Counted from the stretch's first letter, positions 11,135 through 13,780 are shown. The stretch: DNA of 15,072 nucleotides from a virus (IMGVR_UViG_3300029862_000313); one strand, 5' to 3'. The notes: generated from the sequence alone by a model not told the origin. Program-made: numbers and translations.

Positions 11135-11538
11135 GCGAAATTAACTCTCAGGCACTGCGTGAAGCGGCAGAGAAAGCCGGTGAAGATAAGTGGCAGGCTA
11201 AAAAAATAAATGGTGATTTTTTCGTTATTCGTCACGGTAGTTATACAAGACAGCATGGCTACACATCGTATCAACCCATTGCGGAGATTGATTGTAAGCC
11301 AGTCCGGGATTTTGTTGCCAAGGCTAATCCGGCTACCGTGCTGGAATTACTGGATGAACTGGAAGCAGCAAAAAAGCGCATTGCAGAACTGGAAGCGCGG
11401 GAAATACTGCTCCCGGAACGTAGCAGCATGCTTCATCGAACAGATTTTCACGATGATTACCAAACGGTAATGGCATACAAAGTTTCTGAAGTCATCGATG
11501 CAATCCGCGCTACTGGCATTCGCATCAAAGGAGAGTGA
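11131..11538 (+). CDS. ea22: Ea22-like protein, mosaic (lambda-like N- and C-termini, different central region; 135 aa versus about 182 aa in lambda)
   Basis: N-terminus MSEINSQALREAAE and C-terminus GIRIKGE match remembered lambda Ea22; the middle, including a coiled-coil-like LELLDELEAAKKRIAELEARE, does not. Confidence 0.75.
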   Translation: MSEINSQALREAAEKAGEDKWQAKKINGDFFVIRHGSYTRQHGYTSYQPIAEIDCKPVRDFVAKANPATVLELLDELEAAKKRIAELEAREILLPERSSMLHRTDFHDDYQTVMAYKVSEVIDAIRATGIRIKGE

Positions 11539-11539
11539 G

Positions 11540-12295
11540 ATGATTCACTACCACGGTGGGCCTATTACTCCTGATACGTGCGCAATGAGAGCATGGAAAG
11601 GGCGACATGCGTTTATCAGTTTTGCGCATTCAGGCCAGATCAATCTCGCGGCTGAATACTGTCAGTCGTTCGCGCTGGACAACGGTGCATTCACCGCCTG
11701 GAAAGCAGCTGGCAAAAACAAAATCGACTGGAGCGATTACTACGAGTTTGTTGCTCGCTGGAAGAATCACCCAAGATTCGATTTTGCCATTATCCCGGAT
11801 GTTATTGATGGCGGAGAGGAGGAAAATGATGCGCTTCTGAATGAGTGGCCTCACGGAAAACTAGCTGGCGTTCCAGTGTGGCACATGAATGAAAGTGACG
11901 AGCGATTTATTCATTTGTGCAATGAGTTTCCGCGAGTGGCTATCGGTAGTTGTGGCGACTATGACGTAAAGCGCCCAACTCTTGCGGTAGCCAGAATGAA
12001 AGACCTGATTCGTCACATTGTTGATGGGCATGGTCAGCTGGTTACGAAACTACATGGATTGCGCATGTTAAATCCGCTGATATTCACAAAATTACCCTTA
12101 GCCAGCGCAGATAGTACGAACGTCGCTCGAAACATCGGTATTGATAAAGCCTGGTCTGGGGCTTATGCACCTGCAAGTAAAGAGACACGCGCAGCATTAA
12201 TGGTAGAACGGATTGAGGCACACAATAGCCCTGGTTCTCTTGCGTATTGTGAACAACGCGACCGCTTTGAAATGCAATTGCAACTAGCAGTTTAA
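11540..12295 (+). CDS. Candidate TGT-superfamily (DpdA-like) base-exchange enzyme, 251 aa; not present in lambda
   Basis: Start ATG at 11540, 1 nt after the ea22 stop, with AAGGAG 8 nt upstream. By eye, ordered motifs resemble remembered bacterial Tgt motifs: LDNGAF vs TDSGGFQ, AIIPDVIDG vs IVMIFDEC, RVAIGSCGD vs AVGGLAVGE, LHGLRMLNP vs LMGVGKP, ASADSTNVARN vs DMFDCVMPTRNARN. No Zn-binding Cys cluster. Assignment is a hypothesis, not a search result. Confidence 0.4.
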   Translation: MIHYHGGPITPDTCAMRAWKGRHAFISFAHSGQINLAAEYCQSFALDNGAFTAWKAAGKNKIDWSDYYEFVARWKNHPRFDFAIIPDVIDGGEEENDALLNEWPHGKLAGVPVWHMNESDERFIHLCNEFPRVAIGSCGDYDVKRPTLAVARMKDLIRHIVDGHGQLVTKLHGLRMLNPLIFTKLPLASADSTNVARNIGIDKAWSGAYAPASKETRAALMVERIEAHNSPGSLAYCEQRDRFEMQLQLAV

Positions 12296-12305
12296 GGACT
12301 AACAA

Positions 12306-12881
12306 ATGACCACTATTACCAAAGAACGTATTGAATTGTTCATTAAAAATCCGCTTGAAAACGGGCTTACTCGTGGCGAACAAATGGAACTGGCACGAAT
12401 TGCACTGGCATCACTGGGAGCAGAACCTGTAAGCCAAACTTACAACTTGCCAGAATTAATCGAAGGCATGGAGGTTTCCATTGATGTAAGCACTTGTGAT
12501 GCGGATTTAGGTAATCGCTATTTCGGTACCGTCACCGAGGCGTTAGAACTTGATACTGCCAAGAATGGTTACATCCTCCTGGTTCAGGACGCAGAGCCAA
12601 ACTTCGATATAAATGGCAATTCTCCGGTAACTCCGGATGGTTGGGTTATAGTGCCGAAGAAACTAACCGCTGAGAACGGCGCTAAGGGTGTGCTATCCGG
12701 TGAATTTTCAGAAACTACGTTTATAAGCTGCCCGGAATGCTTTGGTGATGATGATTGCGAAACTTGTGACGGCAGCGGAAGAATCGAAATCAAGGTTCCA
12801 GTCAGTTGGACAACTATCAAAACTATTTGGGCTAAAGGGTGTGAGTACTTTTCAATAGTAGCACCGCAGCAAGATGGGTGA
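12306..12881 (+). CDS. Hypothetical protein with C-terminal DnaJ-type zinc ribbon (CPEC...CETCDGSG), 191 aa; gene immediately downstream of the TGT-like gene
   Basis: ATG 10 nt after the upstream stop with an AGGA RBS. Acidic central region; CxxC-N7-CxxCxGxG motif near the C-terminus. No lambda counterpart recognised. Confidence 0.55.
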   Translation: MTTITKERIELFIKNPLENGLTRGEQMELARIALASLGAEPVSQTYNLPELIEGMEVSIDVSTCDADLGNRYFGTVTEALELDTAKNGYILLVQDAEPNFDINGNSPVTPDGWVIVPKKLTAENGAKGVLSGEFSETTFISCPECFGDDDCETCDGSGRIEIKVPVSWTTIKTIWAKGCEYFSIVAPQQDG

Positions 12882-12939
12882 TGAAAACAAGTATTTATAA
12901 CTTAAAAGCATTAAAAAATCGCTTATAGATCAAAAGAAA

Positions 12940-12980
12940 TCTACGTCAAATATTACTATATTTCAATGTGTTATAATTAC
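12940..12980 (+). promoter_or_regulatory. Candidate sigma70 promoter with extended -10 (TGTTATAAT) in an AT-rich spacer
   Basis: TGnTATAAT at 12969..12977, with TCAAAT (12945..12950) as a possible -35. Precedes the 80-aa ORF starting at 13008. Confidence 0.45.
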
Positions 12981-13007
12981 CCCGTCCATAAAATGGGGGG
13001 ACACAAA

Positions 13008-13250
13008 ATGTTCAAACGCTGCATCACCAAGTGTGGAAGCACACCTGACATCCAAGCTTTTATTAATGAAGATGGTAAGCTTGTTGTTGAGAGGAGTGGT
13101 CCTTTTATTAGCAAACAACTTATCATTACCTCTCCAGCGGAGATGGCCGGGGAATGGATAGTTTCTGAACCAGAGGAGTTGCACATCCCGCTTCCTTATG
13201 GCCCTCAGGGACTGATTTATAACCGTTATGTTCAGAAGGAGGCGGGTTGA
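13008..13250 (+). CDS. Hypothetical small protein, 80 aa, with its own promoter and RBS
   Basis: GGGGGG RBS 7 nt before ATG at 13008; sequence MFKRCITKCGSTPDIQAFINEDGKLVVERSGPF.... The track ORF begins further upstream at 12966 with no RBS. The overlapping 152-aa - strand ORF has implausible composition. Confidence 0.4.
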   Translation: MFKRCITKCGSTPDIQAFINEDGKLVVERSGPFISKQLIITSPAEMAGEWIVSEPEELHIPLPYGPQGLIYNRYVQKEAG

Positions 13251-13528
13251 CAATGTCAGGCATAACATCGCCGAGAAATCGAAAGAAAAACAGAACAAGG
13301 TAAACGTTGACCTTGCAGCATCAGGCATGGAGTACAGAGAGCGCCTTAACATACCTGTTATCACTGAGCAGGTATCATGAGAGCAACCTGAGCACTCACG
13401 CGAGTATTTCATGGAGCGCATCAGATACTATCGCGAGCAGTCGTTAAACATGCCCAAGGGAAGCAACCCATGGTATATCGATATGGATGAACAGAACGCC
13501 AAGAAGTAAACGCAATTTGAACGAATGC

Positions 13529-13558
13529 GAACCCGCCGAGTGCGGGTTTTCTTTTATC
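13529..13558 (+). terminator. Rho-independent terminator
   Basis: AACCCGC (13531..13537) pairs with GCGGGTT (13543..13549), followed by TTCTTTTAT. Confidence 0.6.
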
Positions 13559-13598
13559 TGAACTCGCTACGGCGAGTTTTGTTTTATGGCGATGATAA

Positions 13599-13766
13599 AT
13601 GCACTTCCGAGTTACAGGTGAATGGAATGGAGAACCATTCAACAGAGTTATCGAAGCCGAGAACATCAGCGACTGCTATAACCACTGGATGCTGTGGGCG
13701 CAGATAGCACATGCAGACGTAACCAATATTCGAATTGAAGAACTGAAAGAACACCAAGCCGCCTGA
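13599..13766 (+). CDS. Small ORF, 55 aa, in the lambda orf55 position just upstream of xis
   Basis: My translation is MHFRVTGEWNGEPFNRVIEAENISDCYNHWMLWAQIAHADVTNIRIEELKEHQAA*. Below the 60-aa track cutoff. Weak RBS. Confidence 0.4.
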   Translation: MHFRVTGEWNGEPFNRVIEAENISDCYNHWMLWAQIAHADVTNIRIEELKEHQAA

Positions 13767-13780
13767 TGGCGGTTTTTTCT
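13756..13780 (+). terminator. Hairpin plus T-run terminator immediately upstream of xis
   Basis: GCCGCC (13758..13763) pairs with GGCGG (13768..13772), followed by TTTTTTCTT. Confidence 0.55.

Follow-up and report, generated by a model that had tools for sequence, protein, structure and literature searches.

Does a small open reading frame (ORF) that lies behind an AT-rich gap, shortly before the xis and int genes of a prophage, form a transcription unit of its own, or is it simply one more gene of the operon around it? The question is raised by the distal part of IMGVR_UViG_3300029862_000313, a stretch of viral DNA of 15,072 nucleotides (nt) that we call the window, and which spans the immunity-to-integrase region of a lambda-like E. 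coli prophage in the orientation of early-left (PL) transcription. A first-pass annotation had described there a 126-bp AT-rich spacer carrying an extended -10 promoter and a G-rich ribosome-binding site, followed by an ORF of 80 amino acids (aa), and had proposed a moron-like small gene with its own promoter before xis. The spacer (12882-13007, 27.8% GC for 47.5% in the whole window), the extended -10 (TGTTATAAT, 12969-12977) and the G-rich site (GGGGGGA, 12995-13001, before the ORF at 13008-13250) are all present, and the moron proposal is largely supported by purifying selection, by the conservation of the -10, by the occurrence in several prophage backbones and by the terminators of the E. 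coli copies. The end given to the region, 13260, cuts through a further ORF of 16 codons that had been reported after the first. Our reading is that the region is probably a self-contained, horizontally exchanged accessory transcription unit (i.e., a moron) at the distal end of the early-left (exo-xis) operon of a prophage inserted at the lambda attachment site. Comparative sequence evidence establishes that the 80-aa gene is real, that its control region is conserved with it and that the cassette is mobile. The features on which this reading is built are the following:

12882 to 13007, plus strand: AT-rich intergenic control region travelling with the 80-aa ORF (126 bp; about 105 nt align upstream of homologues in unrelated contexts)
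12967 to 12977, plus strand: extended -10 element, TRTG at 12967-12970, one free base, TATAAT at 12972-12977, no -35 hexamer (invariance in six lineages)
12984, plus strand: predicted transcription start (promoter geometry only: 7 nt after the -10, leader of about 24 nt)
12995 to 13001, plus strand: Shine-Dalgarno sequence GGGGGGA, whose G-run varies in length (each lineage has Shine-Dalgarno-like purines 5-9 nt ahead of the ATG)
13008 to 13250, plus strand: 80-aa ORF, encoding a PHROG 9613 protein, acidic (pI 5.3), 8.9 kDa, predicted all-beta (profile match, selection tests, AlphaFold)

A small gene conserved in six lineages

The ORF runs from the ATG at 13008 to a TGA at 13248-13250, and the RefSeq annotation is identical (WP_000476264.1). 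Its product matches PHROG 9613 over the full length (E 2.6e-50, 169 bits; residues 1-80 on profile positions 3-82 of 82). We looked for homologues by a word-seeded search over 5.8 billion protein clusters and by an exhaustive HMMER pass over 1.84 billion cluster representatives. Only six full-length lineages were found, to which the HMMER pass added none: the main E. coli type (278 member sequences), a type 70% identical to it (P0005, from L003 and L172), a Pectobacterium carotovorum type (P0011), and three lineages (P0012, P0013 and P0017) seen only in read-archive assemblies. The family profile also matched three large repetitive proteins (P0014-P0016) weakly; we put this down to their repeats and set them aside.

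These lineages carry a clear coding signature. Compared with its 70%-identical relative (69 codons), the ORF has a ratio of nonsynonymous to synonymous substitution rates (dN/dS) of 0.12, with 13, 14 and 31 differences at codon positions 1, 2 and 3, respectively. In all 15 lineage pairs, the proportion of nonsynonymous differences (pN, 0.17-0.39) is lower than that of synonymous ones (pS, 0.42-0.93), pS being at or near saturation in most pairs. This substitution pattern tells us that purifying selection acts on the 80-aa ORF and that the ORF is a real gene. The first-pass annotation had staked its proposal on the ORF being conserved in related prophages, and such conservation is found across the six divergent lineages. 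The start codon can be fixed in the same way: all lineages retain a Shine-Dalgarno sequence and the ATG at 13008, and not the in-frame ATG at 12966; this upstream candidate was rejected, its frame being closed by a stop codon in the 70%-identical relative.

A probable promoter without a -35 hexamer

When the regions upstream of the ORF are aligned between the six lineages, about 105 nt are seen to move with the ORF and everything beyond is unrelated. A non-coding gap of 170-600 nt precedes the ORF in every context. Within the aligned part, TG-n-TAT-nn-T is invariant in six lineages out of six and the n positions vary (TGTTATAAT, TGTTATGCT, TGTTATGAT, TGATATATT and TGGTATGAT). The TRTG motif is also kept throughout, as TGTG in five lineages and TATG in one, and the distance from the extended -10 to the ATG is 36-50 nt. 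No -35-like hexamer was found 16-19 nt upstream of the -10. This is what is expected of an extended -10 (TGn) promoter of the sigma-70 type, with its TG one base before the hexamer and a conserved TA...T.

TGTTATAAT is the sole TGnTATAAT in the window. A first point against our reading is that chance alone would yield 0.41 perfect extended -10 matches per window, and that at least one appeared in 67 of 200 shuffles; the motif alone is therefore not significant. What makes the match significant is its conservation in six divergent lineages. Thus, the independent promoter of the first-pass annotation stands as an element conserved with the gene, and as a bare motif it stays within chance. Taking the comparison as a whole, the extended -10 is very probably a real sigma-70 promoter devoid of a -35 element.

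Could the ORF nonetheless be an ordinary passenger of the early-left operon, expressed solely in lytic growth, when N-antiterminated transcripts from PL read through it, the conserved blocks before it being a recombination junction, a protein roadblock or RNA signals? The ORF is indeed co-oriented with the surrounding operon in every context, it has the same composition as the phage, no -35 element precedes it, and its -10 match taken in isolation could be fortuitous. We nevertheless hold this explanation to be rather unlikely. The invariance pattern is exactly that of an extended -10 (TG and TAT..T fixed, n free), 36-50 nt before the ATG, in six lineages whose synonymous sites are saturated (pS 0.6-0.9); a sizeable non-coding gap always precedes the ORF, whereas the neighbouring genes of the operon abut or overlap; and the leader carries no conserved RNA structure.

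The same conserved blocks can also be read on the other strand, where they form one further candidate:

12938 to 12966, minus strand: promoter-like site TTGAAA-17-TAGATT (reverse complement of two conserved blocks)

A leftward promoter at this place would produce an antisense or divergent RNA interfering with PL read-through or with the upstream gene. Between 12000 and 14200, this site alone matches the full sigma-70 consensus, its hexamers coincide with the conserved blocks AATCTA and TTTCAA, and the site is also found in the 70%-identical lineage (L172). Its hexamers degrade in most lineages, though: elsewhere the -35 is found as ATGAAG, TTAAAT or ATGGAA, and the -10 as TAGAAA or TAGGTT, with both hexamers degraded in the Pectobacterium-type loci L125, L132 and L133, and the -10 degraded in L129. 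Moreover, such a promoter leaves unexplained the invariant CGTC beside the hexamer and the tandem repeat of the Pectobacterium-type 10-mer (see below), and the DNA that it would transcribe differs from one context to the next, with neither a minus-strand terminator nor a conserved RNA after the site. We consider it very improbable, and retain the plus-strand extended -10 as the probable promoter of the cassette.

Downstream of this putative promoter, the leaders of the different lineages show no shared or conserved RNA structure. A hairpin of the 5' untranslated region masking the Shine-Dalgarno sequence (CCCC...GGGG) was rejected, since the C-run lies upstream of the predicted start and no structure is common to the leaders. 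Among E. coli copies (L136, L137, L138 and L162-L170), the G-run at 12995-13000 is made of 6, 9 or 10 G, or is interrupted as GGGGAG; this could be slipped-strand variation or homopolymer sequencing error. A scan of a 596-Gb genome collection with the 16-mer TATTTCAATGTGTTAT, which is too short for a collection of that size, returned chance matches only, none of them with the ORF.

A conserved box upstream of the -10

The control region holds a second conserved element, which the first-pass annotation had overlooked:

12938 to 12947, plus strand: proximal box AATCTACGTC, with the invariant core CTACGTC at 12941-12947, candidate regulator site (alignment; centre at about -41.5 from the predicted start)
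12917 to 12926, plus strand: putative degenerate distal copy AATCGCTTAT of the 10-nt box (aligned to the perfect distal AATCTACGTC of Pectobacterium-type copies)

None of the six lineages departs from the CTACGTC core, which keeps a distance of 20-21 nt to the TG of the downstream -10. The whole 10-nt box is also invariant among divergent E. coli alleles, and Pectobacterium-type lineages hold a second copy of the 10-mer, identical or almost identical, 21 nt further upstream, which places the centre of the distal copy at -62.5 relative to the predicted start. Centres at -41.5 and -62.5 are where regulators in contact with RNA polymerase usually sit at -35-less promoters, the likeness here being one of layout only.

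The box belongs to the cassette. When box and promoter were searched together in IMG/VR, 32 stretches matched, of which 31 are loci of the ORF and one is a chance match. Candidate occurrences of box and promoter before other genes (L176 and L139) were set aside as chance matches. The tandem form of the box gave no match in IMG/VR; in metagenomes it gave 50, none with the promoter or the ORF, which are chance matches and unrelated 21-nt iteron-like arrays. Because almost all IMG/VR matches are ORF loci and the metagenome matches are unrelated, we regard the box as an integral part of the cassette. The iteron-like arrays themselves are found on 11 metagenome contigs (L205, L209, L215, L216, L220, L221, L230, L231, L238, L243 and L246) as direct and inverted 21-nt repeats of GTTAAATCTACGTCGAAGAAC. 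They share 13 nt with the Pectobacterium-type box and come without the extended -10 and without an ORF homologue; their likeness to the box is probably a coincidence arising from the search pattern.

Each prophage locus contains the box once, and for this reason we rejected the idea that it belongs to the set of operators of phage immunity. From its position and invariance, we infer that the box tunes the promoter by means of a DNA-binding factor, which would most likely be encoded by the host and less likely be the product of the ORF. The simplest idea is a host factor common to Enterobacterales.

The 80-aa protein

The predicted protein is an all-beta small barrel of six strands. With the diverse alignment of the six lineages, AlphaFold reached a mean confidence (pLDDT) of 82 and a predicted template-modelling score (pTM) of 0.73; a first run with four near-identical sequences had given a pLDDT of 41. 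The protein has no hydrophobic leader, and it is acidic in every lineage (pI 4.9-6.1). Profile and sequence searches gave no match in Pfam, NCBIfam, PADLOC or PDB sequences. Nothing significant came out of the Foldseek comparison, where small split beta-barrels, among them PilZ, flavin-reductase-like and phage head-tail adaptor barrels, score at a generic fold level only. A PilZ (cyclic di-GMP-binding) domain was rejected because the RxxxR and D/NxSxxG motifs are not conserved in the family alignment. The protein is similar to no characterised protein by sequence and fold searches, and the literature yielded nothing on the box or on the protein accession. Hence, the homology and structure predictions suggested by the first-pass annotation lead to a family, PHROG 9613, and to a confident barrel, and not to an assignable function.

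These properties bear on two explanations of the cassette. In the first one, the protein itself would bind the CTACGTC box, as a small autoregulated DNA-binding protein, i.e., a regulator rather than an effector. The ORF is the sole constant companion of the box, which occurs singly and stands apart from the immunity operators. On the other hand, an acidic protein is a poor candidate for this role; the protein contains neither a helix-turn-helix nor a ribbon-helix-helix, and no known DNA-binding barrel (AbrB, MazE) is among the fold matches. Autoregulation by an acidic barrel is possible but unattractive, and we give this explanation very little credence. The second one, put forward by the first-pass annotation, is a defence or anti-defence factor expressed in the lysogen, which would keep superinfecting phages out or block an immune system of the host. 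The location, an accessory hot spot of temperate phages, the autonomous promoter architecture, the small size and the rare, patchy distribution of the gene (88 of 5426 complete E. coli genomes) all suit such a factor. This role did not find backing in PADLOC-DB 2.0, where no defence component matched at E up to 1, nor in any informative fold match or similarity to characterised proteins, and the neighbouring genes show no consistent defence context; we judge it distinctly unlikely. An accessory moron gene without an assigned function remains our preferred description.

A theta pseudogene downstream of the ORF

The first-pass annotation had also overlooked a theta gene that forms part of the same unit as the 80-aa ORF:

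13228 to 13509, plus strand: pseudogene of the theta (HolE)/phage P1 Hot family (PF06440), overlapping the 3' end of the 80-aa ORF by 23 nt
13253 to 13303, plus strand: 16-codon ORF MSGITSPRNRKKNRTR, read here as the ancestral theta start thrown out of frame (ATG at 13253, AGGAGG at 13237-13242)

With its in-frame TGA replaced by Arg, the theta frame matches PF06440 with E 3e-29 and 100.9 bits, for a gathering threshold of 34.6, and the theta subfamily model of NCBIfam gives 91.4 for a cut-off of 97, i.e., just below. The frame is 60-70% identical to the theta/Hot genes of P1, HK639 and Klebsiella phages, and the theta segment is present in 91 genomes. In the window, this gene is doubly damaged. 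The TGA lies at 13378-13380, where the alleles L167 and L168 have CGA (Arg); the same TGA is found in every RefSeq E. coli copy inspected, and RefSeq puts an "internal stop" label on theta in every copy inspected. The second lesion is a 1-nt deletion after theta codon 3 (GGCCAT to GGCAT, at about 13261/13262). In the 70%-identical cassette (L172), theta opens with ATGTCAGGCCATAGC..., encoding MSGHSIAAKSKEEQGKVNVDL... in one frame; at 13253 the window reads ATGTCAGGCATAAC, which is the L172-type start minus one C, and its theta frame (NIAEKSKEKQNKVNVDL) has a one-base offset from the ATG at 13253. This comparison indicates that the basic 16-codon ORF is not a gene, being the frameshifted read-out of the 5' end of theta, and that AGGAGG is the ancestral ribosome-binding site of theta. 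Both the ORF and its AGGAGG are therefore present as first reported, as remnants of a theta pseudogene.

Among the alleles, L167 alone gives a complete theta frame, L168 being frameshifted near the C-terminus. L167 is also the reverse of the window: its theta is intact and its 80-aa ORF contains a stop codon, whereas in the window it is theta that is damaged and the ORF that is intact. Since the opposite gene is damaged in each, the 80-aa ORF and theta evidently do not depend on each other. Other theta alleles of IMG/VR show different frameshifts, and PHROGs holds separate families for the two theta halves (phrog_10131 and phrog_29833). In the E. coli strain NT1W25 (L135, 1181-2409), an IS3-family element sits exactly between the 80-aa ORF and the theta pseudogene.

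The 80-aa ORF is paired with theta in two lineages, which are 70% identical to each other; the 80-aa protein itself shows no similarity to theta. Our best guess is that this protein acts on a macromolecule of the host or phage to which it binds, and its repeated pairing with theta/Hot points to the replisome or to proofreading as a possible context. Theta genes are found behind other small ORFs as well. In Klebsiella phage ST13-OXA48phi12.5 (L173, 1325-1767) and in HK639 (L174, 1282-1731), another small basic ORF, of about 60 aa (MSNEEMTPAEKYK...), stands before theta; before this ORF lie in turn TATAAT and a CCCCTC...GAGGGG hairpin that the HK639 annotation gives as a terminator. Pairs of a small ORF and theta thus recur with unrelated small ORFs.

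Terminators and spread of the cassette

In the window, the theta remnant is followed by the last elements of the cassette:

13529 to 13579, plus strand: predicted tandem intrinsic terminators T1 (13529-13549) and T2 (13560-13579) (terminator scan; each about -12 kcal/mol, followed by a T-run)

Exact T1 is present in 35 and exact T2 in 32 of 38 E. coli-type loci, and both follow theta even where the next gene differs. The order of the E. coli cassette is therefore promoter, 80-aa ORF, theta remnant, T1 and T2. An Rfam match to rsmX at 13447-13582 (24 bits, for a gathering threshold of 56) coincides with the two terminator hairpins and was judged spurious.

In E. coli, the cassette is carried in at least five prophage backbones, i.e., at the lambda attachment site, at sbcB, at tRNA-Thr/proA and at dsdC/torI, with one copy split by IS3. 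The strain IAI1 has a copy identical to that of the window (NC_011741.1, 810357-810725). The left neighbours of the E. coli copies vary, and two different right neighbours are found. In other lineages, the cassette lies in nin-type regions downstream of replication genes, or directly upstream of xis-int in Pectobacterium prophages, where the partner downstream of the ORF is a 158-aa PHROG 1636 protein. This partner has no similarity to theta, PDB or Pfam entries. One Pectobacterium locus (L126, 1-10204; CP063380.2) has the small ORF, the 158-aa partner, xis and int beside oppositely oriented lysis and nin-type genes, and looks like a rearranged prophage remnant. The cassette is absent from lambda, from the 50,697 deposited phage records and from the 72,556 plasmids searched.

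At the level of sequence, two of the marks of a moron are found in this cassette: a promoter of its own, on comparative grounds, and presence or absence as a unit with varying neighbours. A distinct base composition is not. The first-pass annotation had taken low GC as a hallmark of a moron, and this applies to the spacer only; the ORF, with 46.1% GC, is close to the window, and AT-richness is confined to the control region.

The proposed transcription unit as a whole

In the mechanism that we propose, the host sigma-70 RNA polymerase would recognise the -35-less extended -10 (TGTGTTATAAT, 12967-12977), and a factor bound at the AATCTACGTC box, at about -41.5, with its degenerate second copy 21 nt further up, would tune the promoter. 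Transcription would start at about 12984, and, after a leader of about 24 nt and the Shine-Dalgarno sequence, 13008-13250 would be translated into the acidic all-beta barrel protein. The mRNA would continue through the overlapping theta/Hot-like gene, which is dead in the window, and would end at the tandem terminators at 13529-13579. Because the transcript would end there, a promoter active in the lysogen would not read into xis and int.

Besides the chance level of the -10 motif, several points weigh against this reading. Promoter activity, the start site, regulation through the box and expression in the lysogen are deduced from sequence. No terminators were detected after the L172 or the Pectobacterium copies; these lack the full three-part layout of a moron, terminators having been found only in the main E. 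coli lineage. The ORF does not differ from the phage in base composition. Most of the recent substitutions among E. coli copies are nonsynonymous, and some of these copies have acquired a stop or lost an invariant residue, which means that some copies are decaying. Theta is dead in nearly all copies and elsewhere the partner is the 158-aa PHROG 1636 protein or an HNH protein; a functional link to theta is weakened accordingly. Finally, the box compared by eye with the consensus sites of CRP, FNR, LexA, MetJ, PhoB, IHF and DnaA fits none of them, this being an informal comparison.

A bolder version of the proposal would make the CTACGTC box the site of an undescribed regulator, or of the 80-aa protein, responding to a specific host signal, and the barrel protein a new effector, either a modulator of epsilon-theta in the DNA polymerase III core beside Hot homologues or an anti-defence or exclusion factor. 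We attach only a small probability to it.

Likeness to known systems and significance

Work of the Hendrix laboratory reportedly defined morons as promoter-gene-terminator units of lambdoid phages, e.g., in HK97/HK022 or lambda bor and lom. A distinct base composition is common in morons and not obligatory. Like them, the cassette has one small gene with an apparent promoter of its own and, in the E. coli lineage, terminators as well; it lies between the genes of an operon, and recurs with changing neighbours in several prophages that are otherwise distinct. Unlike them, it does not differ from the phage in composition, it shows no terminators in other lineages, it carries a second, now dead gene, and its expression in the lysogen is a sequence-level proposal. 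Its control region, with a putative regulator site, is also conserved far beyond what is usually documented for morons.

For the layout of the promoter, and for this only, the closest parallel is E. coli galP1, a class II activator-dependent extended -10 promoter. Both have a TGn extended -10 and no -35 hexamer, with a box resembling a protein site at about -41.5 from the predicted start and, in the cassette, a second copy two helical turns upstream. The cassette differs from galP1 in that its box resembles neither the CRP nor the FNR consensus nor the others compared, in that its start position is a prediction, and in that its -10 is a perfect TATAAT, which may need no activator. As to the downstream gene, it matches the family of P1 Hot and E. 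coli HolE, its copy being a pseudogene (frameshift after codon 3 and in-frame TGA), unlike these genes. Lastly, the lambdoid exo-xis genes (orf60a, orf63, orf61, orf73, ea22 and ea8.5) are small, poorly understood early-left genes of the same neighbourhood; the 80-aa ORF falls outside these families, and lambda lacks it.

Should the promoter work in lysogens, a conserved small prophage protein would be expressed in about 1.6% of the sequenced E. coli, from a control element kept intact between E. coli and Pectobacterium. A compact cassette, amenable to experiment and made of a 126-bp control region and an 80-codon gene could offer a route to a new regulator-operator pair and to the role of small barrels beside theta/Hot. 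Taken soberly, it is a well-documented but ordinary prophage accessory gene, whose most interesting feature is its strongly conserved control region, and the main practical value of the analysis lies in corrections to annotation: the 16-codon ORF is no gene, theta is dead, and the start of the 80-aa ORF is at 13008.

Neighbouring genes

RefSeq copies identical to the window across 12700-13600 place the cassette in a long early-left series. Kil, Gam, Bet and Exo are followed by exo-xis genes (DUF1317, DUF1382, TraR/DksA and Ea22-like); then come a 265-aa protein, a zinc-ribbon protein, the 80-aa ORF, the theta pseudogene and a 55-aa ORF, and lastly a lambda-type Xis, Int and ybhC, which marks the lambda attachment site.

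Immediately upstream of the control region lies a pair of genes (11498-12295 and 12306-12881). The 265-aa protein matches phrog_887, a phage queuine tRNA-ribosyltransferase (Tgt/DpdA-like), with E 7e-104, and the product of the second gene, 191 aa long, has CxxC...CxxC motifs. The last 150 nt or so of this second gene are common to the Ea22 genes of other phages, and its final 30 nt or so recur at the 3' end of differing upstream genes (DUF550 and others) in other E. coli backbones. This recurring segment suggests a recombination junction on the left side of the cassette.

On the other side, the 55-aa ORF (13599-13766; phrog_676, a family of no known function) lies between the terminators and xis, and has a terminator-like hairpin of its own at 13756-13775. 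On its 5' side, 13544-13600 shares about 96% identity with 933W, VT2-Sakai, HK140 and many further phages.

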